64,000 bases of DNA, taken from assembly GCA_040079515.1 (NCBI GenBank), contig JBEBKD010000003.1:68165-132164 (forward strand). Direction: 5' to 3'. The DNA is from Lysobacteraceae bacterium (GTDB taxonomy: Bacteria; Pseudomonadota; Gammaproteobacteria; Xanthomonadales; Xanthomonadaceae). This document shows, piece by piece, positions 34,034 to 64,000 of the stretch. The stretch's first letter is position 1, and each line of letters opens with the position of its first letter. The position numbers and the translations under genes were made by a program. The notes below the pieces were generated by a model that was not told the DNA's origin, made no database searches, and saw only the letters and a program-made list of their open reading frames with translations.

Positions 34034-34069
34034 AAATGCTCGCCTGTTGAGAGCGGTATTGCTTGGAAC

Positions 34070-38075: not shown

Positions 38076-38152
38076 GCGCCTGTAGCTCAGCCGGATAGAG
38101 TAGCGGCTTCCGAAGCCGTTGGTCGGGGGTTCGAATCCCTCCAGGCGCGCCA
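38076..38152 (+). tRNA. tRNA-Arg(CCG)
   Basis: 77 nt cloverleaf GCGCCTG...CAGGCGCGCCA; D arm TAGCTCAGCCGGATAGAGT; anticodon loop TTCCGAA (CCG at 38110-38112); TTCGAAT T-loop; encoded CCA. Confidence 0.97.
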
Positions 38153-42460: not shown

Positions 42461-45054
42461 GGGCGCAAGAAGTCGCACAGGAGTTGGGGATCGGAATGGA
42501 TGCGATCCGCAAATTTCTTGGAAATGATGACATCACGGAAGATACGGTTCTGGACAAGATTGCGATCCAAAATCTGAAGCGAGAGTATGCACAGAAGCAA
42601 CAGCAACCTGTAGATTCTCCTGCACCGCAGCCTGTGGACCGGGGTGCCCAATGGGTTGCGGGTATGGCTACGCCCTCTGGTTTGAATTGGAGTTATGGCA
42701 GCGCTCATTCAGGACAACACAACCCAGGCAGTGGAACTAGCACAAACGACGCCGGCACTGCAAGCCCCAACAATAGCAGCGAGCACAGCAACGCCGAGGT
42801 AGATAACGAGAGTGTCCCCAGTGGGCGTGATATCAAGCTTGGCGCGTCCCAGAGATTTCTGGAGCCATATCAGGATTTCAAGAAAAAAATCTGCAACGCG
42901 CCTCACGCGATCATCCTTGGCGCGAGCGCAGTCGGCAAGTCGTGCTGCCTGTCGATCGCGACCAAAGCGATGGGCGTCAGGGCAGCCGACCACGATCTGG
43001 AAGGAACGATTCGTGAGACCTATCGGATCATCAAACTGTCTCAGGCGGGTCAGGGTCCTGATGGCACGCAATGCGTGCTGGTGGATATCGCTGGCGAATC
43101 CTTCATGGCGTGGCTGGGAACACAGCCGGGCGGGGAGGATCCCGACAATTGGGATACGGTATTCGGCAGCGATTTCAAACCTAAAGAAATTACGGACAGA
43201 GAACAACATCTCGTCCAGTATCTCAATCATGCGTCCGCGCTGTATGTCTTGTTGCTCGCGCCAGAGGGAAAAGACGAAACTGCGGAAATGCGCGTCCGCG
43301 CTGCCGCGAACTTTCTGGCCGAAAGCCGCATCCGTGGTATACGCAATAAGCTGGTGACCTTCCTGGTAGTGAAAGCGGACAAGCTTTATGCGCTGCGGGA
43401 CGCTACCGCTTATAAGCACAACGGTGTCGATCTGCGTGGAGATCGGGGCAGAGGCCCGGATTTGACCGCGGTCGACATCGAGAATCTTCCCATTATGGAT
43501 CTCGATGCATGGTTCGTAAAAGCCATGTCGGATGATCGACTTGGCCTCAACGCACTTAGAGCGGTGGACGACCGTGAGGATGACGGCGAAGGTCAGGCAC
43601 CTCGCTATCCTCGGCATTGGAATTACGCCGTAGTACTGCACCCCCCAAGGGACTATCTGCTGCGTTCTTCTCATGCCCAGCTAATGCGGAACGACATAAG
43701 CGACACCAGCAGAGTACTCTGGAGACAATTATCTTCGCGCCTTACCAATCAAATCAGGAGCCCTGAATACAAACGCGAAGAAAAAAAATATTCCGATTTC
43801 ATCAAGAGCGCATTCAGTATTCAGGAAATGCATGGGCAGCATACTACTGAAGTTTCGTCTGAGCGGCGATTACGCATCACCGCGATCGCCACGCCCTTTA
43901 TCTTGATGGCAATAGCTTTTTTTGGGCTGTTGTCAAAAGGTGATTTCGGTCAGCGCTTTTATCAGTTGAACATCCCAGAGACGCCGATCCGAATCGCCGT
44001 ATCCGATGGCGACAAGCCCGCTCCCTATCTGCGCATGGACCTTAAGGACAAGATCCGCATGCTGGCCGATATGACGATGCTCTACGAAAAAAACCGCCCC
44101 AAACTGTACACGATCCGTCAATACTCCCAGTCTTCGAGTGATCCGATGGAGGTAACCGCTGCTCGAAAAGCAGGAGGAACGAACTTTGGATGCGGCCAGA
44201 TCGCGGCTGCCAACAGTCCCGCCGCAGTCAAGTTGAAGACAATGCTGGAAGGCATCAGTCAAGGAACACCCACTTTCCCGGAAGTGTCCGACGATCAGAC
44301 ATCGAAGGTCGGGAAACTGTCGGGACTGGAAGATTGCAGGGACGCCGTGCTGCGCCTGTGGCGTTTACGCATGGCGTTCGCGATCAATGCCGCAAACCTT
44401 GATGAGGTTGGCGTGGATGTTGTCGTCGCGCAGGTGAAAACGATCGGCGAGATGTACGAATCGATCCGACAGGCCGATCCGACCTTGCTTGGCCTCGTGA
44501 ATCTGGAGAACGACCGGGCGCGCGATCTGCCCTTGATCGACAGCATTCTGTCTTCAGCGACAAAAGCGGCGGATGGCAAAACACCTGCTGAAAGCTATAC
44601 GCGGATTCCCGTGGGTGCTTCGACTCTGGGCGACAGTGCCGACGACCCCTGTCGATCGTTCCTGGTCGATGGTGTGATTCACGACAGCGGCAACCATGCA
44701 TCTTCGCCGGCCTGTGCGATTTACATGCTTCGTGCGGGCTGGCTGGATAAGAACGGTGCGCCCGTGAAGAGTCTGGCCGATCTGTACCTGCAGCTGCCCT
44801 ATGAACAGCAACAAGCCTACTGCAATGAATCTCTGAAGAACTGCACATCGACGCTGGAGCGGTGGAATTTTGATCACGATTCTGCCAAGAAAAAAGGCTG
44901 GCTTGCCCTACTGGTTATTCTAGGGCCGATTATATCGATTGTTTTGTGGTTCTGGCGCAAGCGGCTCATGCGTTTTCTGGATCGATGGCCATCGCTGCTG
45001 CATCCTTTCCTGTGGCAGCTCCGCATGAGGCGCGGTGCCGATGGCCAGGCATAA
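42457..45054 (+). CDS. Membrane-anchored TRAFAC-class GTPase with IF2-N-like N-terminal HTH (865 aa)
   Basis: AAGGAG RBS and ATGA overlap; G1 GASAVGKS (42919-42942); G3 DIAGE (43084); G4-like VKAD (43369-43380); TM helices ITAIATPFILMAIAFFGLL and GWLALLVILGPIISIVLWFW flank a ~300 aa extracytoplasmic domain. Confidence 0.8.
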   Translation: MRAQEVAQELGIGMDAIRKFLGNDDITEDTVLDKIAIQNLKREYAQKQQQPVDSPAPQPVDRGAQWVAGMATPSGLNWSYGSAHSGQHNPGSGTSTNDAGTASPNNSSEHSNAEVDNESVPSGRDIKLGASQRFLEPYQDFKKKICNAPHAIILGASAVGKSCCLSIATKAMGVRAADHDLEGTIRETYRIIKLSQAGQGPDGTQCVLVDIAGESFMAWLGTQPGGEDPDNWDTVFGSDFKPKEITDREQHLVQYLNHASALYVLLLAPEGKDETAEMRVRAAANFLAESRIRGIRNKLVTFLVVKADKLYALRDATAYKHNGVDLRGDRGRGPDLTAVDIENLPIMDLDAWFVKAMSDDRLGLNALRAVDDREDDGEGQAPRYPRHWNYAVVLHPPRDYLLRSSHAQLMRNDISDTSRVLWRQLSSRLTNQIRSPEYKREEKKYSDFIKSAFSIQEMHGQHTTEVSSERRLRITAIATPFILMAIAFFGLLSKGDFGQRFYQLNIPETPIRIAVSDGDKPAPYLRMDLKDKIRMLADMTMLYEKNRPKLYTIRQYSQSSSDPMEVTAARKAGGTNFGCGQIAAANSPAAVKLKTMLEGISQGTPTFPEVSDDQTSKVGKLSGLEDCRDAVLRLWRLRMAFAINAANLDEVGVDVVVAQVKTIGEMYESIRQADPTLLGLVNLENDRARDLPLIDSILSSATKAADGKTPAESYTRIPVGASTLGDSADDPCRSFLVDGVIHDSGNHASSPACAIYMLRAGWLDKNGAPVKSLADLYLQLPYEQQQAYCNESLKNCTSTLERWNFDHDSAKKKGWLALLVILGPIISIVLWFWRKRLMRFLDRWPSLLHPFLWQLRMRRGADGQA

Positions 45055-47419
45055 GTCCGCTCCGCAGCCAAGCCTGTCCGCCAGGCTTACGACGGCGCAT
45101 CTTGTTCTGTGGTCGATCGCGCTGATCGTCACGCTTGTCGTTCTTTTGTCAGCACGGACGATGTACACGCGGATGGAGGCCGAAGCGGCAACCACCGCAA
45201 GCGCCAGCCGCGACGACGATCGCGACGGCAACAGCATCGTCCACGCATTTCTGGACATCCGCGAACGCGACGAAGACGCGCCCTTTGAAAGCCTGTCAAT
45301 CCCTAAAGCTGGCGAAAAGACCGTGCGCCTGTGTACACAAGGCACGCAACGCAACAAGAAGGGAGACTGCGGGATGGGGCGGAAGGAGATCCTGTTCGAC
45401 GGGAAACGCGTCGATCTGGTCTTCGCCGCGCCGACACCGGAACAGGGGCGTTTGTACCTGAGAAGCCAGACGGCTGCCGAAGCCGACGTTTACGACTATG
45501 CCATCCCCCCCTGCAATGACCTCAAAGACTGGTGCCCTTTGGGAGATGGGCGCGTCGAAGCCAGGATCGTCCACTATGCCTTCGCGCCCACCCGTCTGCT
45601 GTGGTGGGCATCGCTCAGCATGCTCGCATGTCTGCTGCTGGCATGGCGAGCCGACACACCGCAGCCCGGCGACCTGCTGCCATCGGGCCTCGGGGTTCCA
45701 GCGGCGTTGAGCATATTGCTCGGCGTTCGCTTCTTGATCGCGGTCAATGCCACCATCAGCGACCATACACTCGCCCCGTATGTCGTTTTGACGGGCCTGG
45801 AACTGCTCCTGCTGCCGAGCGCATGCTGGATATTGATGCGGCGTGCCGATGCGCGGAAGCCATGGTTGTTGCTGTTGCCGCATCTGTCCCTGGTGGCGCT
45901 CTGGTGGATCGTGTCGAGCGACGTCAAGATTTCGCAATACCATCCGAACCTCGTCTGGCATCTGTTCCGCATGAAATTGTCCGTATTGACGGACCGTGGT
46001 GTGCTCGCGGTTTTCAGCGACGCCTTCCTGTCGGAACTGTTCGCGACCCTGTGCATTTACATCTCGGCGGTGGTATTTCTGTGCTCGAAAAAGGTCCGCT
46101 CTTTTCTCGGGCAGGATCATCGACGGCACATCCGATGGTTCGTATTGCTCACGCCTTTTCTGCTGGCCTGCCTGTCCCTGTGGATGGTTGGTCAACAGAG
46201 CGAACCTCGGTTTCACTGGTTCGCGTTCGCCTCTTTGTTCGCCTTAGTATTTTTCTGTATCGCGCGCTCGTTTTTGTCGCTCAAGCATCAGGGGCGGCCT
46301 TTGTTCGACAGGGCGGACTGGGCCGGGTTCGGCTTTCTGTTTGCGATGCTTGTGGTCGCGGTGGGCGTGTCTGTCAGACTGCGTGGAATTGATGCAGGCG
46401 CACTGTTGCTGGCGACGTTTGCCGTGAGCATGGTCGTCCATCCGATCCTGTTTTCGGCAAACAGCAACAGCACGTTCGCGGGATCGAAGGCCGATCGTCT
46501 CCTGGGCGGTATTGCGAAGTTTGGATTCATCGTCGCGGCTCTGGTGATGATTGCGATGCCGATCCTCAAGCTTCTGTACCTGCGCGACTTCGAGCAAGCG
46601 CTAACAGCCCAACAAGCCTTGCCGGCCGCTGCTGAGATGGCGCAAAAGGATTCGTCGGCCGCCGCATGGATGAAGACCATGGATGCGCCGGATGTCATGG
46701 GCATCACCGCTCGGCTCAATCCATGTCGCGTGGTTCCGGGCATCGCTGGTCGTCGCGACGGCTCCGCCAGCGGCGCTGGCGGTCCCGAGGGCAGCGAACA
46801 GCGCTCATCGTTGAGTGCGGAGGATGTCGCCTGGCTAGACGACTGCTTCTTGAAGAACGCCTATTCCGTCGTCGATTCAAGCACCCGGGAATATGTGGAG
46901 GAGGGGCATTATTCCGCGAGACTTTACGCTTGGCTCGTCGGCCACCCTTACGATCGCATCTGGGGCTACGAAAGCCTCGGCAAGCTGCAGGGCTATCAAC
47001 AAGCGATCGCCAACAGCGTGCCTGCCGAAGGCCGGTGGTTCCGGGGTGACCTGGATTTGCCCACCGCACACGCTTTGGGCACAAGGGGCACGTTCGATGG
47101 TTTCAGTTACGAATGGCTGGTCGGTCTGCACTGGATCAGGCCCTTCGGTCTGCTCGGCGTCTGCATGATTCTGATCGCCCATGTTCTGCTGTATGTCTCC
47201 ATCGCGCCGTCGAACCTCCTGGCCAGACTCTACGTCGCCGTGATCGGCATCGCATCGATGTGGCTGCCGCTGCAGACTCAGGGCGCATTCGTAATGATCG
47301 GCCAATCGACTCCGCTGTTGACGTTCACCTCGTTCGTCGGAGACTTCGTCGTCGTTCTGTGTCCGCTGCTGATTCTGCTCTGCATCCCGCCTTTCGTTCT
47401 CGAGAAGGAGGAGCGATGA
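45041..47419 (+). CDS. Polytopic membrane protein with a divergent SEDS (FtsW/RodA/SpoVE)-like C-terminal half (~792 aa)
   Basis: More than 10 hydrophobic segments; IDAGALL (DxG), GYQQAIA, LPTAHA...TFDGF, FGLLGV and IGQSTPLLTFTS follow the order of the FtsW motifs DlG, gyQ, LPeahtDF, GlvG and tGxtLPfiSyG; directly upstream of a PBP. Confidence 0.65.
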   Translation: MARHKSAPQPSLSARLTTAHLVLWSIALIVTLVVLLSARTMYTRMEAEAATTASASRDDDRDGNSIVHAFLDIRERDEDAPFESLSIPKAGEKTVRLCTQGTQRNKKGDCGMGRKEILFDGKRVDLVFAAPTPEQGRLYLRSQTAAEADVYDYAIPPCNDLKDWCPLGDGRVEARIVHYAFAPTRLLWWASLSMLACLLLAWRADTPQPGDLLPSGLGVPAALSILLGVRFLIAVNATISDHTLAPYVVLTGLELLLLPSACWILMRRADARKPWLLLLPHLSLVALWWIVSSDVKISQYHPNLVWHLFRMKLSVLTDRGVLAVFSDAFLSELFATLCIYISAVVFLCSKKVRSFLGQDHRRHIRWFVLLTPFLLACLSLWMVGQQSEPRFHWFAFASLFALVFFCIARSFLSLKHQGRPLFDRADWAGFGFLFAMLVVAVGVSVRLRGIDAGALLLATFAVSMVVHPILFSANSNSTFAGSKADRLLGGIAKFGFIVAALVMIAMPILKLLYLRDFEQALTAQQALPAAAEMAQKDSSAAAWMKTMDAPDVMGITARLNPCRVVPGIAGRRDGSASGAGGPEGSEQRSSLSAEDVAWLDDCFLKNAYSVVDSSTREYVEEGHYSARLYAWLVGHPYDRIWGYESLGKLQGYQQAIANSVPAEGRWFRGDLDLPTAHALGTRGTFDGFSYEWLVGLHWIRPFGLLGVCMILIAHVLLYVSIAPSNLLARLYVAVIGIASMWLPLQTQGAFVMIGQSTPLLTFTSFVGDFVVVLCPLLILLCIPPFVLEKEER

Positions 47420-50184
47420 GAAGATTCACGGGTGTCCGGGCTTTCCTGACGAACGGGATGTCGCTCGCGATCGCGGCGTGTTCGCTCGTTTTCGTCTTCG
47501 GCGGATGGGCGGCGCGCGAGCAGGGGCGTCTCCACAACACGCTGGGTCTGCATGCGGCTCCGGCGATGTACCGGTCGCGAATCGAAGGTCATGAGCAATA
47601 CCTTCAAACGACCGCATTCAGATCGAATCGCCTCGGTGTGATCCATTCAAGTGAGCGCGACCAGTCCGGTCGTGAGATCAAGAAATACAGATGCCGCATG
47701 CCTGCCTACGACATCCGATGGCGTCGGTCCGACATCAACGTCAACGAGCATTTGAACGCACGCGAGAAAATAGGCCTGCGCGACACCCCGGCGGCATGCG
47801 GCGACCTTCGCGTATCGAATGCATCGAATCCCGGCCGTAGCGGTTCGGAGCGCTGGATGGATTTCGGCGAGCAGGTCGCTGTGATTCCGATGGTCTCCGC
47901 GACGAGACGCCACTCCGGAATCGACTACCCCGTCGAGCTGCGATATTCGGACAGCACCCCGATTCTGCCGAGAGAAACCCTGGTGCATATCGAACCCCGG
48001 TCCGCAGGCGGCCCGGCGCTGACCGTCCGCATGTCTTTCGATGCCAAGAATACTTGCACCGCGTCTTACTTCGACGGCAGGCTCAGTGACTGCGGAGGGC
48101 TTCCGTCGGCCCGGAACGGCGACGTGGTTCCGATTCGGGGGCCGGGCCCGATCGTCAAAGGCGTGTATCTGGATACGGATCGCAACGACAGCGCGGCGGA
48201 CGTCGCCACTATTTTCATCGATGCGGAAGGCATGATCCGGGTCAGCGGCCACCACTTGTCGACCGCTGCCGATACTGACGCGACCGCAGAACAGACGCAG
48301 GACTTCGATCTTCCCTGCAGCGCGGGGAGTCGACGGGAAGGCGCGGTAGTCCGGCGTTTCAGCGTGGGCCACAAGGCGTATGGTCTGCGCGTTTGGTGCG
48401 AAAACAGCCGGCCCCTGCCGACGACCGAAGCGCAGCGCCTCGCGGACAGGGCATCGAAAGAGGCGCGTTCATCGACAGCGGACGAAGCGCTGGTCGAAAG
48501 CGCTCTGGACACCCGCCTGGATGCGGAATTGAACCGTGCGCTGCGCGAGCGGTGCCCGCATTGCGAAGTGCTGGTGATGGATACCTTCCGCGGATCGGTA
48601 GTCGCCATGGCAAGCGGCCGCGTCGCGAAGGACAAGGACGGAATGCGGGTCACCAACTTCGAGCGCAAGCCCCAGGGCTCGGTGGTCAAACCCATCTATG
48701 CCACCGCAGCGCTCGAAAGCACGGAAGGGGATCGCGGCACGGCGGTCAGCCCGCTGCTGTCGCTTCGTATGTCGTCGTTGCAGCCCGATTACCTCGATCC
48801 CAAGAGAGGATGGATGTCCTGTCGCGTCGCCAACGGCGCCATTCCGGGCTGCCTTCGCGATCGGAAAGGGGGATACGACACTCACGCGGTTGGAGGCGAG
48901 TACGATTTCTATCGATTCATGGTCAGATCCGAGAACGTCTACGCGACGACCCTGCTTTATCTGGGCAGCAGCAGACCTTTGAGCGATGCGGACGGCGATT
49001 GCGAGAACGCTTTCGAACTCCTTCCCGCTGTGCCGGAAGTCGATGCCTGGCAGCTGACGATCGAGGGTCGGGATGCGCGCGACTGGGCCGCGAAGCGTGT
49101 TCCGCTGTTTAATTCAAGGTCGAAACTCTCCTGTTTGAATACCGGGATGCTGCCCTGGCTGTCGTGGCTGCGCGAGCACATGAACATCGGCCGTCGCAAC
49201 GAGTATTTCAGGTCCTACCTCTGGCTGGACGAGCATCGCGCTGCGCTGCGCATCGAAGGCCTGCACTCGTTGGCGCCAGAACTCGAACACGCAACTCTTT
49301 TCGAAAAAGAAGGCGTATGGCGCAGACAAGGCTTCATCGAGTCCAGTGTGTACAAATCCCCTTACGGCGGGGGGGACGCGCTGTGGACGAATGTGGGCAT
49401 CGCCGAGGCGATTTCGACGATCGTCTCGGGCAGTGACCAGAAAGCGTCGTTGTTGGCGCATTCGCTTCGCGCAGAACCCAGCGCGTCGCCACTGGGTTCG
49501 TCGCGCGCTGCCGTGGCAAAAGCTATGGCCGGCGTAGTGGGAGATCCGGAGGGTACCGCGAACCGGTATTTCCATTCGATGATCGAGGCCTGCGGCCCTT
49601 CGCCTCAAGCCTGCGTGCGCACACAGCAGTATGGGCCTATCCGGGTCCTGGCGAAGACAGGAACGCCGAAACGGAGCCCGGATGGCGGTCACGCTAAAAA
49701 AAGGATCGAAGCGCGCTTCCCGGTGCTGACAGGCGGTCGATCCCGCAGCGCATTGTGCCAGCCCTTCGAAGGGAATCGTTCGAGCTGTCGATTGACTGCG
49801 GAAGGCGATACTCTGTTCCGAACCGTGTCGATGGCGTACCGATACAGCAGCACATCGGACAACCTCGGCAAACGGCTCGATGACAAGGCGCTGCGCGGCG
49901 CATTTCAACGCTGGTTGTCGGAGGAAATCCTGGCCAGCGACAGCGGCGATGGGCCTTCCGAAGGCGGCAGCGACGATCAAGGCCAAGAAAGCCGTCTCGT
50001 GGTCGTGCTGTTGCAGCCTGCGCAAAACGAAGAAGCGATGCCCAAGGCAGGATGTACGCTGGTGATGACTTCGGAAACGAAGAACCCTCAAGCACTGGTG
50101 GATATCCTCGGACAACTGTTGCGCGGTGAGAGCTTGTTGCGATCCTGCCGCTTCTTGCCCGTGCAGGCGGATTCAACCAGATGA
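47416..50184 (+). CDS. Penicillin-binding protein, transpeptidase domain with large N-terminal extension (922 aa)
   Basis: AAGGAGGAG RBS and ATGA overlap; N-terminal TM; VLVMDTFRGSVVAMAS; SxxK = GSVVKP (48679-48690), SxN = SEN (48928-48936), KTG = AKTGT (49654-49662). Confidence 0.85.
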   Translation: MRRFTGVRAFLTNGMSLAIAACSLVFVFGGWAAREQGRLHNTLGLHAAPAMYRSRIEGHEQYLQTTAFRSNRLGVIHSSERDQSGREIKKYRCRMPAYDIRWRRSDINVNEHLNAREKIGLRDTPAACGDLRVSNASNPGRSGSERWMDFGEQVAVIPMVSATRRHSGIDYPVELRYSDSTPILPRETLVHIEPRSAGGPALTVRMSFDAKNTCTASYFDGRLSDCGGLPSARNGDVVPIRGPGPIVKGVYLDTDRNDSAADVATIFIDAEGMIRVSGHHLSTAADTDATAEQTQDFDLPCSAGSRREGAVVRRFSVGHKAYGLRVWCENSRPLPTTEAQRLADRASKEARSSTADEALVESALDTRLDAELNRALRERCPHCEVLVMDTFRGSVVAMASGRVAKDKDGMRVTNFERKPQGSVVKPIYATAALESTEGDRGTAVSPLLSLRMSSLQPDYLDPKRGWMSCRVANGAIPGCLRDRKGGYDTHAVGGEYDFYRFMVRSENVYATTLLYLGSSRPLSDADGDCENAFELLPAVPEVDAWQLTIEGRDARDWAAKRVPLFNSRSKLSCLNTGMLPWLSWLREHMNIGRRNEYFRSYLWLDEHRAALRIEGLHSLAPELEHATLFEKEGVWRRQGFIESSVYKSPYGGGDALWTNVGIAEAISTIVSGSDQKASLLAHSLRAEPSASPLGSSRAAVAKAMAGVVGDPEGTANRYFHSMIEACGPSPQACVRTQQYGPIRVLAKTGTPKRSPDGGHAKKRIEARFPVLTGGRSRSALCQPFEGNRSSCRLTAEGDTLFRTVSMAYRYSSTSDNLGKRLDDKALRGAFQRWLSEEILASDSGDGPSEGGSDDQGQESRLVVVLLQPAQNEEAMPKAGCTLVMTSETKNPQALVDILGQLLRGESLLRSCRFLPVQADSTR

Positions 50185-50193: not shown

Positions 50194-51029
50194 TGGAGCC
50201 TACCTCAAAATCGAAATCTGAGAAAAACTGCTTCAAAATATCGGGATGGTGAAGATTTCAGACGCGCATTGGGACCGGATCAGGCATCACTTTCCGGAAG
50301 AGAGCATCCCCGACGAGAGGCCCGGCCGTAAGCCGGTGCCTGCACGACGGGTGCTTGATGCGGTGTTGTGGATGCTGAAGACCGGCGCGCAATTGCATAT
50401 GCTTCCGCAATCGTATCCGAACTACAAGACCGTGCATCGTCGGTTCCAGATGTGGGCGGAGCAGGAGGTGTTGCGCGGCATCCTGGTCGATCTGTCGAAC
50501 GAGCTACGGGACCAGGATCTGCTCGATACGTCCGAGTGTTACATCGACGCGACGTTCGCGAACGGGCGTGGTGGGGGGTTGGAGATCGGCAATACGACGT
50601 GCGGAAAAGGCGTGAAATCATGGCGGTCGTGGATAGTGCAGGTCTACCGCTATCGGTGAGCACGCATGCGGCGAACCACCATGAGGTGAAGCTGGTGCAG
50701 ATGAGCTTCGACTTCTACATGATCGAGGCGATGCCGGACGTCTTGATTGGCGATCGTGCATACGACAGCGGCGATCTGGACGACGATTTGCGCGGCAAGG
50801 GCGTAAAGATGGTGTCGCCGCATCGGAAGAACAGGAAGAAGCCGAAGACACAGTATGGTCGGGAGTTGCGGAGATACAAGCGACGCTGGATCGTGGAGAG
50901 GTTCTTCGCCTCGATGAAGCACAAGCGCCGGTTACTGAATCGTTGGGAACTGTATCCGGAGAATTTTCTCGGGTTTGTGCAGATTTCCGCCGTGGTTTTG
51001 CTGCTCAGGCAATTTTGAGATGGGTTCTA
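50194..51029 (+). mobile_element. IS5-family insertion sequence (degenerate)
   Basis: Terminal inverted repeats TGGAGCCTACCTCAAAAT vs TAGAACCCATCTCAAAAT (reverse complement of the right end), 14/18 match; ~835 bp; encodes the transposase below. Confidence 0.85.
50246..51018 (+). pseudogene. IS5-family DDE transposase in two frames
   Basis: Frame 1: DAHWDRI...GRKP...VLDAVLWMLKTG...YKTVHRRF...YIDAT. Frame 2 (-1): IMAVVDSAGLP...GDRAYD...YKRRWIVERFF. Shift at GTG AAA TCA near 50615. Confidence 0.85.
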
Positions 51030-52097: not shown

Positions 52098-53471
52098 TTA
52101 TTTCGTTCCCATCTCCCGCGCAGCGCGCACACCAGACAAATAGGCACCATGAGTGGTACTGGAGTAGTTGCGCTCGGTCGCCTCGCCCGCGAAGAACAGG
52201 GCACCTTCGAGTGGAGCGGCCAGCGCATCGCGCGTGGCGGGCGTGGTACCCAGCGCATTGAACGAGTAGGAGCCGCGTGCAAAGGGATCGCGATGCCAGC
52301 GGGTAATCTGCACGTCGAGCGGTTCGGGAATATTGTCTCCAAGCATGATCCGCAGCGTGCGCATCGCGTCCTCAACGATCGCCTTGTCGTTCCAGCCTTC
52401 GATCTCGATCCCGCGATCCGCGGCGTTGAAGCCGAGCAGCACCGGTTGCCGCGCGACACGCTGGAAGCTCACCCATTCGGTCCATGCACCCGGCGTTTCC
52501 GGGAGGTATTCCAGCCAGTCGGCGTCCTTGTCCCAAAACGCTTCTGGAAATTTCAGGTAACACTTGTTCAGGGTGCCCATGCCCAGGCGTTCGATGGCCT
52601 CGCGCTTGGCAGCGGGCAATTCGGGAACGAAGCGGACGCTTCCGGCTTTGAGTACGCCCAGCGGTAAGGTGATCAACACTTGCTGGGCCTCGAACTCGCC
52701 GGAGGACGTGACCACGCGAACCATGCCGCGTCGCCAGTGGATCTCGCGCACCACCTGATCGAGTTCGATCTGCAAACCCTCGGCCAGATGATCGGCGATC
52801 ACCCGGAAGCCGTCGGCGAACAGCATGTCGCCGCCGCCGAAGCCGTCTGCGGCATCAAACCAGTGGGCCGACAACTGCGACGCGCCGCCCGCGTATTCCT
52901 GCTCGATGTCGGCGCTGACCGCGAACGCCAGGTCGCGACGCTGCGCAGGCGTCGCCTTGATCTTCGTCGACAGCGCATCGACCACAGATTGCACCGAAAC
53001 ATCGCGATCACGCTGCTGGGCGCGCTCCAATGCATCGGCAAGCCGTTTGCGCAGCGCGTCCAGTGCTGCGGCACGGGGGCCCTCGACTGCGCTCCCGTCC
53101 GTATCGTGCAGAACGCTGCGATCGTATTCGGTACGCAGTCTCTTGGCCTGGTGGCCATCGGCCAACCCGGTGATCGGGTTGCCGCGCACGCCGTGGATCC
53201 AGGTCGCCCCCAGATCCAACGGCAACTCGGGCCACCGCCTGCTGGTCCAGACGCGGCCGCCGATGCGGTCGCGCGCTTCCAGTACCAGCACTTCGCGCCC
53301 CGCGGCTTGGAGTCTGCGCGCGGCGGACAGACCAGCCAGCCCCGCACCGATCACAAGAGTCCGCCTCGCTGGTTTCGCCTGATCTGTGCGCTGCGATGCA
53401 GCCGCCTGCACACCGCCGTGGGCACTCAGCGCGATCAAGCCCAGAAGTTCCATGAATTGCCGTCTTTTCAT
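52098..53471 (-). CDS. Tat-exported flavin-dependent amine oxidase (polyamine oxidase/MAO family, 457 aa)
   Basis: MKRRQFMELLG twin-Arg signal; VIGAGLAGL, LEARDRIGGR, DLGATWIHG, ITLPLGVLK, WHRDPFARGSYS, FAGEAT and HGAYLSG motifs. Confidence 0.9.
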   Translation of the reverse strand: MKRRQFMELLGLIALSAHGGVQAAASQRTDQAKPARRTLVIGAGLAGLSAARRLQAAGREVLVLEARDRIGGRVWTSRRWPELPLDLGATWIHGVRGNPITGLADGHQAKRLRTEYDRSVLHDTDGSAVEGPRAAALDALRKRLADALERAQQRDRDVSVQSVVDALSTKIKATPAQRRDLAFAVSADIEQEYAGGASQLSAHWFDAADGFGGGDMLFADGFRVIADHLAEGLQIELDQVVREIHWRRGMVRVVTSSGEFEAQQVLITLPLGVLKAGSVRFVPELPAAKREAIERLGMGTLNKCYLKFPEAFWDKDADWLEYLPETPGAWTEWVSFQRVARQPVLLGFNAADRGIEIEGWNDKAIVEDAMRTLRIMLGDNIPEPLDVQITRWHRDPFARGSYSFNALGTTPATRDALAAPLEGALFFAGEATERNYSSTTHGAYLSGVRAAREMGTK

Positions 53472-53859
53472 GCGGTGACTACGCCTCCGAGCACGCATGT
53501 GTGCTGGCGACAGGATATCTGCAGCCGGCGCGCGCGTGCGACACGGCCTCTTGCCATCCACCGCCAGAACGCCCTTCCACCCCTCGATTGCTGATTCGGA
53601 TTGGAATGCATCTCCCGAAGACGAGGCGGTCACTACGTGGGTGAGGATGGTGCGTTGCAATAGCCGGGAGCCCCTCGCTGGGGCCTTGCTTCACTACGCT
53701 GCGCTGCGATCAGGCCTGAGGCGGCGTTTGGATTTCTCGCGCTCTGGCTGCACCATTCCCTTCCGTCGAAACACTTCGGTCGGGATTGCCGGGCCTTCAC
53801 TCTTCGCGCGACGCGTTCGCCACCACGCGCGGCAGTGCCGCGCAAGCGTCGCGTCTTAC

Positions 53860-57968: not shown

Positions 57969-58247
57969 ATGTCTGAAGCGGCCGCTTATAAAACGCTTGT
58001 GGAAATTTTCCGGGATGACCTTGCGATCGACCCTGCTCGTGTTCATCCGGATGCTTCGTTGATCGGTGAATTGGGGTTCGACTCCGTTGCCTTCGCGATC
58101 GGACTCGTGTCAATCGAGGAAAAGCTGGGCGTTACTCTCCAGCAGGACGAACTCATCGTCTGCAAAACCGTCAACGACGTCGCCCGGCTCATCGAAGAAA
58201 CGCGCAATCACGTCAGTGCGTCCAGCGCCGGCGTTCCCGCTGGATAA
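57969..58247 (+). CDS. mbtL: Acyl carrier protein, MbtL-like (92 aa)
   Basis: AAGGAG RBS; IFRDDLAID.ARV.PDA.L..ELGFDSVAFAIGLVSIEEKLGV.L...EL..C.TV matches mycobacterial MbtL as recalled; DSV phosphopantetheine Ser. Confidence 0.8.
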   Translation: MSEAAAYKTLVEIFRDDLAIDPARVHPDASLIGELGFDSVAFAIGLVSIEEKLGVTLQQDELIVCKTVNDVARLIEETRNHVSASSAGVPAG

Positions 58248-58319
58248 ATCCCCGGCCGCCAAGACGGACAATCCCCGCCACCGGTCGCGCAATGCCGGAA
58301 GATCAGGGTCGATCGAATC

Positions 58320-60014
58320 ATGAGCAGATTCACCGAAGAAGTTTTCACCTCTGCGACCGCGTCCGGCAAAGGACTGGTGACGGGCGAACCGCAGAATTCC
58401 CTCCGGCGCACGTGGAAGGAAGTCCATGAGATCGCACGGTGCATGGCGGGCTCGCTCGCATCGGTCGGCGTGAATCCGGGAGACGCGGTAGGTGTACTGA
58501 TCGGCGACCCCGCCAACATTGCGCCGGTGATTCAGGCCGTATGGATGCGCGGTGCGTCCGTGACGATGCTCCACCAACCCGGTCCGCGAACAGAGCTCGG
58601 CGCTTGGGCGGAAGATACATTCGCTGTGCTCGACATGATCGGCGCGAAGGTCGTTGTCGCGGGCGACGTCTTCGCACGCACCATGCCGCTCTTCGAAGCG
58701 CAGGGCACGTCTGTCGTGTCGGCGGAGATCCTGGCTGAGGGCAGTGCGCTCGAACCGGTCGATTGCGGCGAGGACGATATCGCGTTTCTGCAGCTGACGT
58801 CGGGCTCGACGGGGATTCCAAAGGCCGTGGCGATCTCGCATCGGAATCTCCACGAGAATGCGGCGGCGATGGTGAGCGCGTCGAAACTCGATCCGCAGAC
58901 CGATGTGCTGGTGAGTTGGCTGCCGCTCTTTCACGACATGGGCATGATCGGATTCCTCGTTCTGCCCATGCAGGTCGGCGCGGAGGCTATTTGCGCGACG
59001 CCGGACGCGTTCCTCAGATCGCCGCGGATTTGGCCATCACTGATATCCAAATACGGCGGGACGATGACCGCCGGACCGAACTTCGCGTATGCCCTTCTCG
59101 CCCGCTACCTGCGTTCGGCGCCCGACGGCGCGTTCGATCTGTCATCGCTGCGGTTCGTTCTCAACGGTGCCGAACCCATCGACCGGACGACTGTTGCCGC
59201 AGTGCTCGCGGCCGGAGCCAGATTCGGGCTTGATGGCGCGGCATTGGTCGCTGCGTATGGCATGGCGGAAGCCACGCTCGGCGTATCGTTTTCCCAGACA
59301 GGCGAGGGTGTGGAATTCGATACGGTCGATCAAGCCGCGATCGAAATCGAGTCGTATGCGGCGATCCGCACGGACGACGACGCGCGCCGTTTGGCCAAGC
59401 TGGGCAAACCATTGCCCGGCATCGAGATGCTTGTCGGCGATGCGGCGAGCGCCGGTACTAAGGCCCGTATGGTCGGCGAACTCAGAATCCGCGGTGGCGC
59501 CGTCTCGCGCTACTACCTCACTCCGAGCGGAAAGCAATCGCTTCTCGACGACGACGGGTGGTTCAGTACCGGAGACATCGGTTATGTCACCGAAACGGGC
59601 GATGTCGTCGTCTGCGGCCGATTGAAAGACATGATCATCGTGGCGGGACGAAACATCTTTCCCACCGATATCGAGCGGGCGGCCTGCCGCATCAGCGGCG
59701 TACGGCCGGGAAATGCCGTTGCCGTCGCCCTCGCCGCCACGGGAATCCGCGAAGAGTTCGCGGTCGTGGTCGAATCCAGCGACAATGCCGACGCCGAAGC
59801 GAACGCCCGTATCAAGAGCGAAGTGTCGGACGCTGTCTACGCGGCGTTCGGCGTCAGTCCCCGGCTCGTTTCAGTGGTCGCTCCGGGCACGCTGCCCAAA
59901 ACGCCATCGGGAAAACTGCGACGGTCCGCGACTCTCGGCATCGTCGAAACGGATTTGGCCCAGATGCACAGCGTGAACAGTCAACGACAACAGGAACGAG
60001 TCGGCTCATCATGA
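58320..60014 (+). CDS. mbtM: Fatty acyl-AMP ligase (MbtM/FadD33-like, actinobacterial type; 564 aa)
   Basis: FLQLTSGSTGIPK, SWLPLFHDMG, PNFAY, NGAEP, YGMAEAT, TGDIG, GRLKDMIIVAGRNIFP and LPKTPSGKLRR motifs; N-terminus MSRFTEE...GLVTGEP...TW.EVH...QAVWMRGASVTMLHQP resembles actinobacterial FAALs. Confidence 0.8.
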   Translation: MSRFTEEVFTSATASGKGLVTGEPQNSLRRTWKEVHEIARCMAGSLASVGVNPGDAVGVLIGDPANIAPVIQAVWMRGASVTMLHQPGPRTELGAWAEDTFAVLDMIGAKVVVAGDVFARTMPLFEAQGTSVVSAEILAEGSALEPVDCGEDDIAFLQLTSGSTGIPKAVAISHRNLHENAAAMVSASKLDPQTDVLVSWLPLFHDMGMIGFLVLPMQVGAEAICATPDAFLRSPRIWPSLISKYGGTMTAGPNFAYALLARYLRSAPDGAFDLSSLRFVLNGAEPIDRTTVAAVLAAGARFGLDGAALVAAYGMAEATLGVSFSQTGEGVEFDTVDQAAIEIESYAAIRTDDDARRLAKLGKPLPGIEMLVGDAASAGTKARMVGELRIRGGAVSRYYLTPSGKQSLLDDDGWFSTGDIGYVTETGDVVVCGRLKDMIIVAGRNIFPTDIERAACRISGVRPGNAVAVALAATGIREEFAVVVESSDNADAEANARIKSEVSDAVYAAFGVSPRLVSVVAPGTLPKTPSGKLRRSATLGIVETDLAQMHSVNSQRQQERVGSS

Positions 60015-61201
60015 CCATCCAGACCGAAGAATCGTTTTTCGACCTCGCCTCCTTCAAGGAACATCTGGACAAGATCTTCGCCTTGGAATCGACGCATCGG
60101 ATGCTCGAAGAGGCGGAACGGACGGGCATTTTCCCCCGCAGCTTCATCGAATTGCTGGGTCGCGAAGGTGTCTATGCCGCGAAGTGGCAGGATCGCGCGC
60201 AGCCTGCATTGGGGCACACGCTGGCCTTGGCCGAACGACTCGGCCGGCTCGGATCCGGCGGCGTCGCGACGGCCGCAACCCTGCACGATTCGGCGATCGC
60301 GATGCTTCGGCGGTTCGGGCGTTCCGTAGTTTTGCGGGATGTCGCCGATCAAGCGATCGCAGGCAAAGCGGTGTTGTGCATTTCCGCGACCGAAGCCGGT
60401 GCTGGCTCGGATATGCTCGGGCTCAGTTCGACGGCGGTTCGGGAGGAAGGCGGGTATCGCCTTCGCGGACACAAGAAGATGGCGTCGCCCTCGCCGTTCG
60501 CCGACTACATCCTGCTCGCGGTCCGCGGCATCGATCAGAGTCACGAAGGCCGCGATGACCTCGCGCTGTTCCTTGTACCGACTTCGCAGCTTCGTGTCGG
60601 CACGACATTCGACACGGTCGGCGCCAGAAGCATCAGTACCGCGCCCGTCTTCTTCGACACTTGGGTGCCCGCCGAGATGATGCTTGCCCGACCCGGAACC
60701 GGTCTGGCCGTGCTCAGTTGGGGCTTGACCCATGAGCGTTTCGCCATCGCAGCTCAGGTTCTCGGCGGCTGCGATCTCGCTCTGGGCATGACGGTCGCCC
60801 GGATGAAGAGACGGGAATCCTTCGGGGTCAAGCTTTTCGATCATCAGGCATTGCGACTGCGGATCGCCGACCTGCAGGCGCGGGTCGACATGATGCGATG
60901 GGGATTGCACGGCCTGATTGCGGATCCCGCCGGGCTCAACGTGCGATCTTCCGCAGCCGCAAAGGTCACCGCGGTTCGCCTCGCATGCGAAGTGATGTCC
61001 GAATGCATGCATATCTTCGGCAGCGCGGGCGCGATCGAGACGGAGTCGCCGCTGGGCCGCTGGTGGCGCGATATCAAGATGGCGCGTATCGGCGGCGGCA
61101 CGGACGAGGTGCTGTGGGAGATCGTGGCTGCCGGTCTGGAACCCGACTATGCGAGCTACGATCGACTGGTTCACGAATGGCGACCGGAGGCGGATCGCTG
61201 A
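60011..61201 (+). CDS. mbtN: Acyl-ACP/acyl-CoA dehydrogenase, MbtN/FadE14-like (396 aa)
   Basis: ATGA overlap; LHDSAIAMLRRFG, WGLTHER, HQALRLRIADLQARVD, SECMHIFG and WWRDIKMARIGGGTDEVLWEIVAAG match MbtN as recalled. Confidence 0.85.
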   Translation: MTIQTEESFFDLASFKEHLDKIFALESTHRMLEEAERTGIFPRSFIELLGREGVYAAKWQDRAQPALGHTLALAERLGRLGSGGVATAATLHDSAIAMLRRFGRSVVLRDVADQAIAGKAVLCISATEAGAGSDMLGLSSTAVREEGGYRLRGHKKMASPSPFADYILLAVRGIDQSHEGRDDLALFLVPTSQLRVGTTFDTVGARSISTAPVFFDTWVPAEMMLARPGTGLAVLSWGLTHERFAIAAQVLGGCDLALGMTVARMKRRESFGVKLFDHQALRLRIADLQARVDMMRWGLHGLIADPAGLNVRSSAAAKVTAVRLACEVMSECMHIFGSAGAIETESPLGRWWRDIKMARIGGGTDEVLWEIVAAGLEPDYASYDRLVHEWRPEADR

Positions 61202-61209: not shown

Positions 61210-62286
61210 TCAGGTCCGGCAGCGTTGCGCGACTGCCGCCCCCACATGTTCCGCATCGCGGCCGACGAAACCGAGCAGTGCCGACCCACGGTTCCGCATC
61301 CGGTACAGGCCGACGAAATGCAACCCGGACGCACCGATCCCTCCGTCGTGCTCCGGGAATCCGTCCGCGCCGAGCAGTTCCTCGCCCAGCCAGGACCAGT
61401 CGTTGCGGTATCCGGTCGCCCACACGACGGTCGATGCGTCGATCCGCTTGCCGTCGGCAGTGACGAGCTGCGCGCCTGCGACATCGACGACCCGCTCGGC
61501 GAAGCCGACGCATCGAGCGAGTTCGTCGATGTTCGTGCCGACGATGGGATCGGGCATCGCGAATCGTCGCGCGAGCGGTGTGTTCGTCGGTAGGCGCAGA
61601 ATTCCGGACTTGGACAACCACCAGAACGCATCGCGTCCCAGGATCCGCTGCGGCAGCCGGGGCTGCCTGCGGCCTCTGCAGACCACCACACCGTGGCTGC
61701 CCGACAACTCCTGTGCGATCTGCAGGCCCGAGTTCGCCGATCCGACGACAGCGACCCTGCCGGCAGGGATCTGTTCGGGATTACGGTAGGCGTGCGAATG
61801 CAACTGCGTGACGCTCGACGGAAGCCGTTGCGCATATTCGGGAATCAAGGGCGTCTGGAAAGCCCCGACAGCCATCACGACCTGGCGTGCGGTGATCGTT
61901 GTGTCCTGCGTGGCGACCGTGAAAACGCCGTCGGACCGACGGACCGAAACCACACGCTGGCCGAGATGGACCGGCAGGTCGAACGTCGCCGCGTAGGTCC
62001 GGAAATATTCGGGGACCTCGTCTTTTACGGGGTATCGATCCGGATCGCCGGGGAATGGCAGACCTGGCAGACCGCAAAACCGCGCCGATGTGAACAGCCG
62101 CAGGGAATCCCAGCGACGGGTCCACGAAACGCCAAGTTCGGTCGCGGCGTCGAGAATCACGAAGTCGACACCCGCTTGCTTGAGCGTATGCCCAACGGCG
62201 AGGCCGGCTTGGCCCGCACCGATCACGACGACATCGACATCGGCGGGAAGTTCGCTGCTGCTGTTGGATCTGCTTGCGCTTGACAT
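61210..62286 (-). CDS. Flavin-containing monooxygenase-like NAD(P)/FAD oxidoreductase (358 aa)
   Basis: VVVIGAGQAG, WTRRWDSLRLFT, FQTPLIP, HSHAYRNP, VVGSANSG and WATGY motifs; starts 2 nt after the NRPS stop. Confidence 0.85.
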   Translation of the reverse strand: MSSASRSNSSSELPADVDVVVIGAGQAGLAVGHTLKQAGVDFVILDAATELGVSWTRRWDSLRLFTSARFCGLPGLPFPGDPDRYPVKDEVPEYFRTYAATFDLPVHLGQRVVSVRRSDGVFTVATQDTTITARQVVMAVGAFQTPLIPEYAQRLPSSVTQLHSHAYRNPEQIPAGRVAVVGSANSGLQIAQELSGSHGVVVCRGRRQPRLPQRILGRDAFWWLSKSGILRLPTNTPLARRFAMPDPIVGTNIDELARCVGFAERVVDVAGAQLVTADGKRIDASTVVWATGYRNDWSWLGEELLGADGFPEHDGGIGASGLHFVGLYRMRNRGSALLGFVGRDAEHVGAAVAQRCRT

Positions 62287-62288
62287 GG

Positions 62289-64000
62289 TCACTCCGCGAC
62301 GCCCACCGGAACGAGCTCCCGGAATGCGGTTACGACTTCGGCGATATGCGTTGGGCTGAACAGGCTGTGGTGCGTGCCTGCCACGATGCGCGTCGTCACC
62401 GTGCCGCGGGTCCGGCTGGACCAGCCCCAATCGCCCATCGCCGTATCCGGATGCATCGCATACTCGCTGACCTGCCCATCGCGAGCCCGAACCAGAGCGA
62501 CATCCGCAGCGACGACAGGTGGCTTGTAGCTGCGGCATGCATTCACGATATGCGCGAACACCGGATAGACATGGTGGAGTTCCGCGGCGAGCAGATCGGC
62601 GCCGGCCGTGTCCTCCTTGAACCAGTCCTGCATTGTCGCCTCGTCGACGGGACCGGGAGGCGGATCCGTCGGCGCGGGGGCATCAAGCACGATCAACTGC
62701 GCCACCTGTTCTCCCGCAGCTTCGAGTTGCGCGGTCATCTCCAGCGCGATCACCGCGCCCGACGACCATCCCATGATCGTATACGGGCCCGCCGCCGCCG
62801 CGCGGACAGCGGCCACATAACCCTGCGCCAGCGCTTCCAGCGTGTCGGGCAGCGGCTCGCTCGCCGCCAGTCCGAAACAGGCGCGGTCGAGGTCGCGCGC
62901 CAGGTCCCGATACGCCGCGACCGATCCACCGGCCGGATGGACCATGAACAGCGCCGGCCCGGTGCCGGCGTGCAGCGGCACCAGAGCGTTGGAAAGTCGC
63001 TGTCCTGTCATCAGACTTGCGAGACGCGCGACCGTGCGCGATTCGAGCAGTCCGCCCAGGGACACATTGCGCCCGGTTCTCGAGCGCAGCGCGGCGACCG
63101 CACGCAACGCGGCGAACGAGTGCCCCCCGAGATTGAAAAAATCGTCGTCGACGCCGATGGTTTCGATGCCCAGCACCTCTTTCCATATTTCGACGATCGT
63201 GCGCTCCAGTTCGGTGCGTGGCGCCACATACTTCGCGCCGACATCGGCGGTCGTTTCCGTGAGCGCGAGAAGCGCGCCACGGTCGAGTTTGCCGTTGGAT
63301 GTGACGGGCAGACTCGCGACGACCGTGATTCGCCCCGGGATCATATAGCTCGGCAGCCGGTCCACCAGGCCCGCGCGGATGGACTCGCCATCGCTGGCGC
63401 ACCCGTGGAGCACGACGAACGCGTGGAGTTGCTTCTGTCTGGCCTCGCCGGCCACGACGACGGCGGCGTCCTTGACCCGCGGATCGGCCGCCAGCACGTA
63501 CTCGACCTCGCCGGGCTCCACCCGATGCCCCTGAATCTTGCATTGCGCGTCGATGCGCCCGATCAGCTCGATGTTGCCGTCGGGCAACAAGCGGCCGAGA
63601 TCGCCGGTGCGATAAATGCGCTCGCCTGTGGCCGGGTGGGTCACGAATGCCGCTGCGGTCTTTTCGGGATCGCCCCAGTAGCCTTGCGCCAAGCCGACGC
63701 CGCCGATATGCAGCTGCCCCGTCGTCCACATCGGCGTCTCGTTGCCCTGCTCGTCGAGGACGTACCAAGGTTGATTCGCCATCGGCCGTCCGTAGGGAAT
63801 GCTGCGCCACCGGGGATCGACCGCATCGATGGGGTACCAGATCGACCAGATCGATGCCTCCGTCGCGCCGCCGAGGCTGATCACCTTCGCGTTCGGCGCG
63901 ATCGCCTTGATGTCTTCGGGCAGAGAGACCGGAATCCAGTCGCCGGACAACATCACGATGCGCAGCGCGGGCAGTTCGACGCGCTCGGCACGCGCGACAT
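62289..64000 (-). CDS. NRPS terminal module (A domain C-half, PCP, thioesterase); 5' part is outside the window
   Basis: LRIVMLSGDWIP, SLGGATEASIWS, YRTGDLGR, GRID.QCKIQGHR and TSNGKLDR; PCP DDFFNLGGHS; TE HPAGG and GWSSG; frame is open to the window edge. Confidence 0.92.
   Translation of the reverse strand, partial: VARAERVELPALRIVMLSGDWIPVSLPEDIKAIAPNAKVISLGGATEASIWSIWYPIDAVDPRWRSIPYGRPMANQPWYVLDEQGNETPMWTTGQLHIGGVGLAQGYWGDPEKTAAAFVTHPATGERIYRTGDLGRLLPDGNIELIGRIDAQCKIQGHRVEPGEVEYVLAADPRVKDAAVVVAGEARQKQLHAFVVLHGCASDGESIRAGLVDRLPSYMIPGRITVVASLPVTSNGKLDRGALLALTETTADVGAKYVAPRTELERTIVEIWKEVLGIETIGVDDDFFNLGGHSFAALRAVAALRSRTGRNVSLGGLLESRTVARLASLMTGQRLSNALVPLHAGTGPALFMVHPAGGSVAAYRDLARDLDRACFGLAASEPLPDTLEALAQGYVAAVRAAAAGPYTIMGWSSGAVIALEMTAQLEAAGEQVAQLIVLDAPAPTDPPPGPVDEATMQDWFKEDTAGADLLAAELHHVYPVFAHIVNACRSYKPPVVAADVALVRARDGQVSEYAMHPDTAMGDWGWSSRTRGTVTTRIVAGTHHSLFSPTHIAEVVTAFRELVPVGVAE

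Follow-up and report, generated by a model that had tools for sequence, protein, structure and literature searches.

Why does a soil gammaproteobacterium of the family Lysobacteraceae carry, next to a gene for a non-ribosomal peptide synthetase (NRPS), a set of genes that resembles part of the mycobactin pathway of Mycobacterium? The question is raised by a stretch of 64,000 nucleotides, called the window below, from contig JBEBKD010000003.1 of the assembly GCA_040079515.1 (C3:68165-132164; assembly size 4.5 Mb, 63.6% GC). At positions 57969-61201 it encodes an acyl carrier protein (ACP), a fatty acyl-AMP ligase (FAAL) and an acyl dehydrogenase (ACAD), which a first-pass annotation had taken for a mycobactin-type mbtL-mbtM-mbtN cassette. 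We found that the FAAL and the ACAD do nest within Actinomycetota, but outside the mycobactin lineage. It is likely, in our judgement, that the three genes belong to an orphan five-gene biosynthetic cluster, in which a loading cassette of actinobacterial origin serves a single NRPS module with heterocyclization, cysteine-specific adenylation, thiolation and thioesterase domains, Cy-A(Cys)-T-TE, with an enoyl-thiazoline as the product.

The three genes were correctly recognized in the annotation. A check of the open reading frames (ORFs) and a Pfam search gave three intact ORFs on the same strand exactly at these coordinates, with matching domains: PP-binding in the ACP (E 7.9e-13), AMP-binding (E 2.3e-52) and AMP-binding_C_2 in the FAAL, and Acyl-CoA_dh_M and Acyl-CoA_dh_1 in the ACAD. 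The ACP gene lies 73 bp upstream of the FAAL gene, and the start of the ACAD gene overlaps the FAAL stop in an ATGA junction. On the other strand, the genes for the NRPS and a flavin-containing monooxygenase (FMO) run towards the cassette; FMO and ACAD converge with a gap of 8 bp, and the FMO start (GTG at 62292 or ATG at 62286) abuts the stop codon of the NRPS. Flanking DNA past the window end was fetched to complete the NRPS gene and to see its neighbours. The gene extends to approximately the window-equivalent position 66161 (L001:289-4161) and encodes about 1290 amino acids, and the five genes together form a unit of about 8.2 kb (Table 1). It is bounded by htpG and unrelated genes beyond the NRPS, and by unrelated orphan genes at the other side. 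A scan for sigma-70 promoters and terminators was uninformative, since the counts were at or below shuffle expectation.

Table 1. Features of the five-gene cluster (positions in the window; strand in the third column)
Feature	Position	Strand	Length (aa)	Description
ACP	57969..58247	+	92	MbtL-type, stand-alone; Ser attachment motif GFDSV
FAAL	58320..60014	+	564	PRK07768/Pks16-like fatty acyl-AMP ligase
ACAD	60011..61201	+	396	MbtN-like acyl-ACP dehydrogenase
FMO	61210..62292	-	~358-360	class B (type II) flavin-containing monooxygenase
NRPS, 3' part	62289..64000	-		A-T-TE; full gene Cy-A(Cys)-T-TE

Ten of 11 Lysobacteraceae loci have these five genes in this arrangement, and the L. enzymogenes locus has the identical set. 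The exception is the nearest relative of the cassette in the window, a locus in the metagenome-assembled genome (MAG) Lysobacter sp. Bin_5_1 (L012, 3655-11185). Here NRPS, ACP, FAAL and ACAD genes are collinear on one strand, with the NRPS upstream, and no FMO gene is found within 10 kb. This arrangement indicates that the cluster has been rearranged within the Lysobacter group and that the FMO may be dispensable.

To judge how close the cassette is to the mycobactin genes, the second mycobactin locus, mbt-2 (MbtK/L/M/N; Rv1344-Rv1347c), has to be compared gene by gene. A genuine mbt-2 locus from Mycolicibacterium thermoresistibile, with ACP, FAAL, ACAD and an Acetyltransf_8 gene, provided the family controls. 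The likeness is obvious at first sight, as both systems consist of an ACP, a FAAL and an FAD-dependent acyl-ACP dehydrogenase, and the order ACP-FAAL-ACAD is that of the control, as had been claimed. The ACP also passes the MbtL-type NCBIfam model NF004533 (85.5 bits, cut-off 72; true MbtL 148.9 bits), so that its description as MbtL-like holds. In blastp comparisons it is 49% identical to MbtL and 47-50% identical to the ACPs of actinobacterial cassettes.

The ligase, which the annotation had implied to be MbtM, is a different protein. Against the MbtM model NF004510 it reaches 354 bits, with a cut-off of 621 and 880.7 bits for the control MbtM. On NF005850/PRK07768, however, it obtains 757.3 bits (cut-off 572), while the control MbtM has only 389.6; a stand-alone FAAL of Rhodococcus (907.6 bits) and the FAAL of a cassette of the type found in Mycobacterium sp. 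URHB0021 (786 bits) served as further controls on this model. Sequence identity (blastp) is 36% to MbtM, 55% to the stand-alone Rhodococcus FAAL and 60-61% to NRPS-linked actinobacterial FAALs. The Rhodococcus gene adjoins pth and rplY, a position that we take to be that of pks16/Rv1013 in M. tuberculosis. The ligase is thus a member of the PRK07768/Pks16-like FAAL subfamily and not an MbtM orthologue. All of its 18 best solved relatives in the PDB are FAALs or FAAL-type loading domains; together with the dedicated ACP next to it, this suggests that the acceptor of the acyl group would be a carrier protein and not CoA. In the whole assembly, no FAAL-like match at E < 1e-20 was seen other than that of the cluster itself.

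The ACAD occupies an intermediate position. Its best solved relative is MbtN (PDB 4XVX) with 395 bits, far ahead of the next structure with 114 bits, in line with the earlier view of an MbtN-like protein. In blastp it is 51% identical to MbtN, and 60% identical to the ACADs of NRPS-linked actinobacterial cassettes. Two residues, E242 and R243, do not vary in the alignment. E242 we take to be the catalytic base, at the position used by isovaleryl-CoA dehydrogenase, and GGGT presumably replaces the usual YEGT. Judging by its family and by the adjacent ACP, the enzyme would act on acyl-ACP and desaturate it at C2-C3. A single other match to an acyl-CoA dehydrogenase at E < 1e-10 exists in the assembly (C10:18676-19728, 27% identity).

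The annotation had expected that a phylogeny would place the proteins within Actinobacteria, and for the FAAL and the ACAD this is what rooted trees gave. The FAAL tree (63 rows) was rooted on the MbtM-type ligases, which are separated from the PRK07768-type FAALs by a branch of length 2.44 with support of 100/100. A Nucisporomicrobium sequence, two Nocardia groups and the Pks16-like clade diverge before the Lysobacter clade, whose sister group consists of the URHB-type cassette FAALs and a FAAL from a Mycobacterium MAG (94/97). The latter is situated in a typical mycobacterial lipid locus with FAAL-PKS (polyketide synthase), TE, LppX and MmpL genes, unlike the Lysobacter cluster. When the actinobacterial PRK07768-type FAALs were forced to be monophyletic without Lysobacter, the resulting topology cost 15 log-likelihood units and was rejected by the approximately unbiased (AU) test (p = 0.0195).

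For the ACAD, a first tree had to be discarded. It used a paralogue of 27% identity as the outgroup (branch length about 10), the root came to lie beside the long Lysobacter stem, and the program warned of a long branch. In the replacement tree, the outgroup consisted of the ten nearest sequences outside the family (36-43% identity), taken from an exhaustive search of representatives; this search showed the family to be compact in sequence space, with only 77 representatives at E <= 1e-30, and the entire MbtN family collapses into one of them. The ingroup, which includes MbtN, is separated from the ten outgroups with 100/100. The sister of the Lysobacter clade (100/100) is a Nocardia sequence (L020; 98/90), and both lie inside a clade of NRPS-linked actinobacterial cassettes (98/95) from which mbt-2 is excluded. 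The mbt-2 ACADs instead form one clade with those of nocobactin-like Nocardia loci (100/97). Both Lysobacter enzymes therefore nest inside Actinomycetota, and both lie outside the mbt-2 clade.

These results bear directly on the proposal that the cassette is the mycobactin mbt-2 set itself, moved from Mycobacterium and reused. Gene order, the MbtL-type ACP and the closeness of the ACAD to the MbtN structure are what speaks for it. However, the ligase falls far short of the MbtM model and sits across the long branch from it, and the ACAD belongs to a clade that excludes mbt-2. In addition, MbtK is missing. This enzyme adjoins the canonical mbt-2 loci, and the absence of an MbtK-like acetyltransferase noted for the window extends to the whole 4.5-Mb assembly, in which tblastn with a true MbtK gave a best E value of 1.2. 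Among five defining features of mbt-2, the NF004533 ACP and the gene order are thus present here, and three (MbtM, MbtN with its clade, and MbtK) are not. The shared order is not inherited from mbt-2 either, since the order in the actinobacterial cassettes nearest to this one is ACP-ACAD-FAAL. We consider a transferred mbt-2 set very improbable. The names MbtL-like and MbtN-like describe the ACP and the ACAD fairly, but mbtM is wrong for the ligase.

The alternative to a transfer is that the system is old and vertically inherited in Proteobacteria, its actinobacterial likeness being due to transfer in the reverse direction or to shared ancestry. The distribution of the genes was used to assess this possibility. 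All named relatives of the FAAL, the ACAD and the NRPS with at least 75% identity are from Lysobacter or Lysobacteraceae, with the exception of one contig labelled Chitinophaga. For the FAAL and the ACAD, this tight group (75-89% identity) has L. enzymogenes, L. antibioticus and L. yananisis as its named members; below it, identity drops to about 60%, and from there on all named relatives are Actinomycetota. The members of the 60% group are found in actinobacterial NRPS clusters with the order ACP-ACAD-FAAL. They include Mycobacterium sp. URHB0021, a metagenome contig that runs into an actinobacterial-type argCJBDFRG operon, and Nocardia, where a PapA-like gene and a bimodular NRPS are also present. 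A pattern scan of one genome per species (185,579 species) gave 331 stretches that encode ACAD relatives. Nine of the best 80, which were inspected, are from Lysobacter or Lysobacteraceae (the Chitinophaga-labelled contig included); the remaining ones are all from Actinomycetota, mostly Mycobacteriales and one Micromonosporaceae. The ACAD was found in 8 of 43 genomes of the host genus, in 2 of 58 genera of the host family and, when 400 genomes of the class (309 genera) were sampled, in the query genome only.

The contig labelled Chitinophaga (L021; CALRWS020000007.1, from a MAG assigned to Chitinophaga pinensis) carries a complete cluster of the Lysobacter type with 81-91% protein identity and a GC content of 65%. 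This is at odds with Chitinophaga, and the contig most probably comes from Lysobacter and was mis-binned.

Vertical inheritance would agree with the long stem of the Lysobacter clade (0.35-0.6 substitutions per site), with the host-like composition of the genes (cluster 63-66% GC, the ACP gene 56%; GC3 is also host-like) and with a divergence of the cluster proteins between Lysobacter genomes (75-82% identity) that roughly tracks that of HtpG (81-88%). Against it stand the patchy distribution within family and class, the lack of any proteobacterial relative beyond the Lysobacter group in the best 80 of the 331 stretches, the outcome of the AU test, and the topology of both rooted trees, in which actinobacterial sequences of several families surround the Lysobacter clade. 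A broad proteobacterial clade, the outcome that would have contradicted the annotation, is excluded by the patchy distribution, and an old vertical system appears to us hardly credible. Nested trees and patchy distribution in Gammaproteobacteria together support transfer across phyla. The likely donor was an NRPS-linked ACP-ACAD-FAAL cassette of Mycobacteriales-like Actinomycetota, which would represent a sister lineage of mbt-2.

The transfer was not recent, because the composition has become host-like, the stem is long and the Lysobacter copies differ from each other about as much as HtpG does. Since its acquisition the cluster has probably been retained patchily or moved within the Lysobacter group. 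The two closest genomes, with 95% identical HtpG, are without it; their synteny with the window's genome ends about 70 bp upstream of htpG, and beyond this point they carry differing DNA. In an attempt to reconstruct the empty site from these two genomes, no insertion boundaries or att sites could be defined. Most other carriers have the cluster on one contig and htpG on another.

The survey also showed that actinobacterial MbtN-like loci have several architectures besides mbt-2. Loci not of the mbt-2 type are those of Williamsia (L041, L042) and Nocardia (L024-L026, L034, L044, L051-L052, L072-L074, L085, L089) as well as L029, L032 and L077. In Williamsia, a Cy-A NRPS gene is divergent from FAAL-ACAD. 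The Nocardia loci, which are probably of the nocobactin type, have ACP-ACAD followed by a gap of 1.3 kb and a PRK07768-type FAAL. Another architecture combines an ACP, an MbtM-like FAAL and an ACAD without MbtK, and in L037 two MbtM-type ligases stand in tandem.

What the cassette would serve depends on the adjacent NRPS. Pfam finds a Condensation domain (weak), AMP-binding, PP-binding and Thioesterase in the full protein. The Cy-type domain is the N-terminal one and is encoded outside the window (L001:2737-4161). When this domain was compared with the PDB, 7 of 7 matches were heterocyclization domains, among them EpoB (133 bits), HMWP2 (130 bits), Irp2, FmoA3 and BmdB; for the whole module, BmdB (Cy-A-T, 537 bits), FmoA3 (524 bits) and PchE (422 bits) are among the best solved relatives. 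The module has the Cy1 motif FPLTDMQ and no HHxxxDG, and its TE domain has the motif GWSSG. From the aligned A-domain segments FDLSVYD...WNS...MLSGDW...SLGGATEASIW, the specificity code DLYNMSLIWK was obtained, which is one conservative substitution away from DLYNLSLIWK, the code that we take to be the classical one for Cys. All NRPS relatives examined have a Cys-type code.

The NRPS does not seem to have come with the cassette. Its nearest relatives outside Lysobacter, in Streptomyces, Micromonospora, Actinophytocola and Verminephrobacter, are 38-45% identical and form the terminal modules (TubC_N-Cy-A(Cys)-T-TE) of PKS-NRPS lines, with N-x4-D (NNxFxD) or S-x4-D in the Cy motif; no ACP-FAAL-ACAD cassette is linked to these Cy relatives. 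Co-transfer was put to the test: the partner NRPSs of the actinobacterial cassettes match only in the generic A, T and TE regions (31-38%), and the first domain is unmatched. Generic matches on one side and Cy relatives free of cassettes on the other leave co-transfer unsupported. As cassette and NRPS have different relatives, the cluster looks assembled from parts of separate ancestry: an ancestor within the Lysobacter group would have acquired ACP, FAAL and ACAD, which were then combined with the Cy-A-T-TE module.

The FMO matches Pyr_redox_3 (E 1.3e-32, 113.7 bits) and FMO-like (39.6 bits) in Pfam, and its best solved relatives are bacterial type II enzymes (4USR with 118.6 bits, 4A9W with 110.6 bits, also 4C5O and 4USQ).

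From these components, a biosynthetic route can be proposed. The FAAL would adenylate a free fatty acid and load it onto the dedicated ACP, on which the MbtN-like flavoenzyme would introduce the C2-C3 double bond. The resulting 2-enoyl-ACP would be the donor to the Cy-type domain, with the A domain loading Cys onto its own carrier domain. Amide formation and cyclodehydration would then give a carrier-bound 2-(alk-1-enyl)-thiazoline, from which the terminal TE would release the 4-carboxylic acid. The translationally coupled FMO would then probably oxygenate this product, with sulfur or nitrogen as the likeliest site, which is the least certain step. The product is thus probably a 2-(alk-1-enyl)-thiazoline-4-carboxylic acid. 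Since the acceptor is the Cy-type domain of a single Cys module, the whole product would consist of the acyl chain and one residue. The annotation had the acyl chain lipidate the NRPS product. In this respect it can be refined: acyl attachment is retained, but with a single Cy-A(Cys)-T-TE module the chain would be the donor of the only condensation step and not a late decoration. Of the two devices that had been suggested as means of attachment, an MbtK-like acetyltransferase or a starter condensation domain, neither is needed, as the Cy domain takes the starter role.

Several points weigh against this reconstruction, or limit how far it can be carried. With respect to ancestry, the group for the AU test was chosen with the tree already in view, and several nodes of the FAAL tree do not reach the star threshold. 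The FAAL and ACAD trees point to one wider actinobacterial group but differ on the exact sister, and GC and GC3 are so near to those of the genome that the composition adds no separate evidence of transfer. The nearest relatives of the NRPS have an identity of 38-45% only. The ACAD obtains 456.6 bits on the MbtN model NF037942, below the cut-off of 700 (control MbtN 775.7), so that a preference for acyl-ACP over acyl-CoA rests on its family and the adjacent ACP. The product is a prediction from the genes, whose sequence does not reveal the length of the acyl chain, the geometry of its double bond or what the FMO does. The most serious point concerns the Cy domain. In 41 of 41 Lysobacter orthologues of the NRPS, SNLFLD replaces the DxxxxD motif, for which canonical Cy domains in the same alignment have DLLVLD or DMIAAD, and in all Lysobacter orthologues VSS replaces FTS (Thr to Ser). 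Mutation of the DxxxxD aspartates abolished the activity of classical Cy domains (PMC10510592), and cyclodehydration is therefore not assured.

It has thus to be considered that the variant Cy-like domain only condenses, or carries out other chemistry, and that N-(2-enoyl)-cysteine or a thia-Michael ring is formed instead of a thiazoline. The invariance of both replacements in the Lysobacter orthologues, the NNxFxD motif of the nearest relatives and the inactivity of the aspartate mutants all point in this direction. However, the Asp in TPQVLLD is conserved, and structural work assigns cyclodehydration to the Asp of this TPQVxLD motif and puts the DxxxxD residues away from the reacting atoms (PMC10510592). 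Ser in place of Thr also retains the hydroxyl group, and Cys-type A domains accompany the variant Cy domains throughout the subfamily, as would be expected of thiazoline formers. Failure to form the thiazoline is thus unlikely in our opinion, although it has to be taken seriously.

Domains with S/N-x4-D may represent an undescribed Cy subclass. That this subclass is functionally distinct, for example by closing the ring through addition of the thiol to the enoyl group, or that the cluster makes a cis-2-enoyl conjugate which acts as a diffusible signal, we regard as a rather speculative and distinctly unlikely variant. Xanthomonadales already signal with cis-2-unsaturated fatty acids.

The enoyl-thiazoline route also raises the question of function. 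Dihydroaeruginoic acid is an example of a thiazoline carboxylate made by PchE-like modules, and PchE is one of the best solved relatives of the NRPS, so an iron-regulated lipo-thiazoline siderophore resembling pyochelin or a fragment of mycobactin comes to mind; L. enzymogenes strains are positive in the CAS siderophore assay (PMC9410377), an activity unlinked to this cluster. A scan of both promoter regions for Fur boxes gave nothing above background, however: the best matches at the two operons are 9/19 and 11/19, compared with 14-15/19 for the best sites in the genome. No TonB-dependent receptor, ABC importer or exporter is encoded in or adjacent to the cluster, either here or in L. enzymogenes, and an alkenyl cap brings neither a phenolate nor a second ligand; a single thiazoline carboxylate is a weak chelator. 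A role as a siderophore is therefore doubtful.

A literature search found no characterized product of the cluster and no description of MbtN homologues in Lysobacter. In a comparative-genomics study, the cluster appears only as 'Unknown NRPS ... pchF' for L. enzymogenes CX06 and C3 and L. antibioticus 76 (PMC9410377).

Its parts can nevertheless be related to known systems, as the cluster joins two logics that have each been described: initiation of a lipid-capped product by FAAL, ACP and dehydrogenase, and thiazoline formation of the PchE/BmdB type. With mbt-2 it shares a kindred product logic, an α,β-unsaturated fatty acyl group on an NRPS-derived molecule that contains a heterocycle. The difference is in the timing and the site of attachment: in mycobactin, MbtK transfers the acyl group late to the N6-hydroxyl of lysine, whereas here it would go directly to the Cy domain as the chain starter. 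The closest relatives of the cassette (60%) are the NRPS-linked ACP-ACAD-FAAL cassettes of Mycobacteriales. Their FAALs are of the same subfamily (NF005850), they stand beside an NRPS ending in a TE, and the chemistry of loading and desaturation is probably the same. They differ from the Lysobacter cluster in gene order, in their bimodular C-A-T-C-A-T-TE NRPS (C, condensation) and in flavoenzymes of the FAD_binding_3 type. No characterized example of these cassettes (URHB0021 and Nocardia PapA types) was found.

A combination of FAAL, ACP and acyl dehydrogenase starts the NRPS in actinomycete lipopeptides such as friulimicin (LipA/LipB/LipD) and ramoplanin/enduracidin. The likeness to the Lysobacter cluster is one of strategy: a fatty acid activated as its adenylate is bound to a free-standing ACP, desaturated there and used as the starter. 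The lipopeptide cassettes feed starter C domains of large multimodular NRPSs. For the second half of the pathway, PchE and BmdB are the relevant models, in which Cy-A(Cys)-T builds a 2-substituted thiazoline-4-carboxylate from a carrier-bound acyl donor, as we propose here. Their donors are salicyl-ArCP (aryl carrier protein) and alanyl-PCP (peptidyl carrier protein), whereas the donor here would be an enoyl fatty acyl-ACP. They have the D-x4-D motif, in contrast to S-x4-D and a TE of its own in the Lysobacter module, which also, unlike PchE/BmdB, has no embedded epimerase, methyltransferase or FMN (flavin mononucleotide) oxidase and is accompanied by the class B FMO instead.

The locus is thus a tested case of a lipid-loading cassette that went from Actinomycetota into an antibiotic-producing gammaproteobacterial genus and was joined there to a module of another ancestry. 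It also makes clear that MbtN-type acyl-ACP dehydrogenases occur beyond mycobactin, as part of a larger family of actinobacterial lipopeptide cassettes that is mostly unstudied. Since the cluster is small and is kept in culturable biocontrol strains (L. enzymogenes, L. antibioticus, L. capsici), it lends itself readily to heterologous expression, from which a new small lipo-thiazoline could be obtained. The SNLFLD motif is a natural experiment on the need for the first Asp of DxxxxD.

A variable stretch of about 28 kb starts at a tRNA-Arg(CCG) gene (38076-38152) and has the cluster at its right end. Between 38076 and 57766 the GC content is lower (55-62%), and nothing of this part is found in the closest relatives. 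It encodes a DDE transposase (50368-51018), on the minus strand a flavin amine oxidase (52098-53660), and many orphan genes, as well as large ORFs at 42397-50184 without a Pfam match. To the left of the variable stretch, the window has two further long ORFs that lack Pfam matches, of 1520 amino acids (25059-29621) and 1387 amino acids (33905-38068). Three successive huge ORFs of 1824, 1460 and 1652 amino acids, rich in RCC1 repeats and with Ig-like domains, occupy positions 4366-18724 on the minus strand; the first two overlap as listed, and the trio adjoins plsB (1488-4283).

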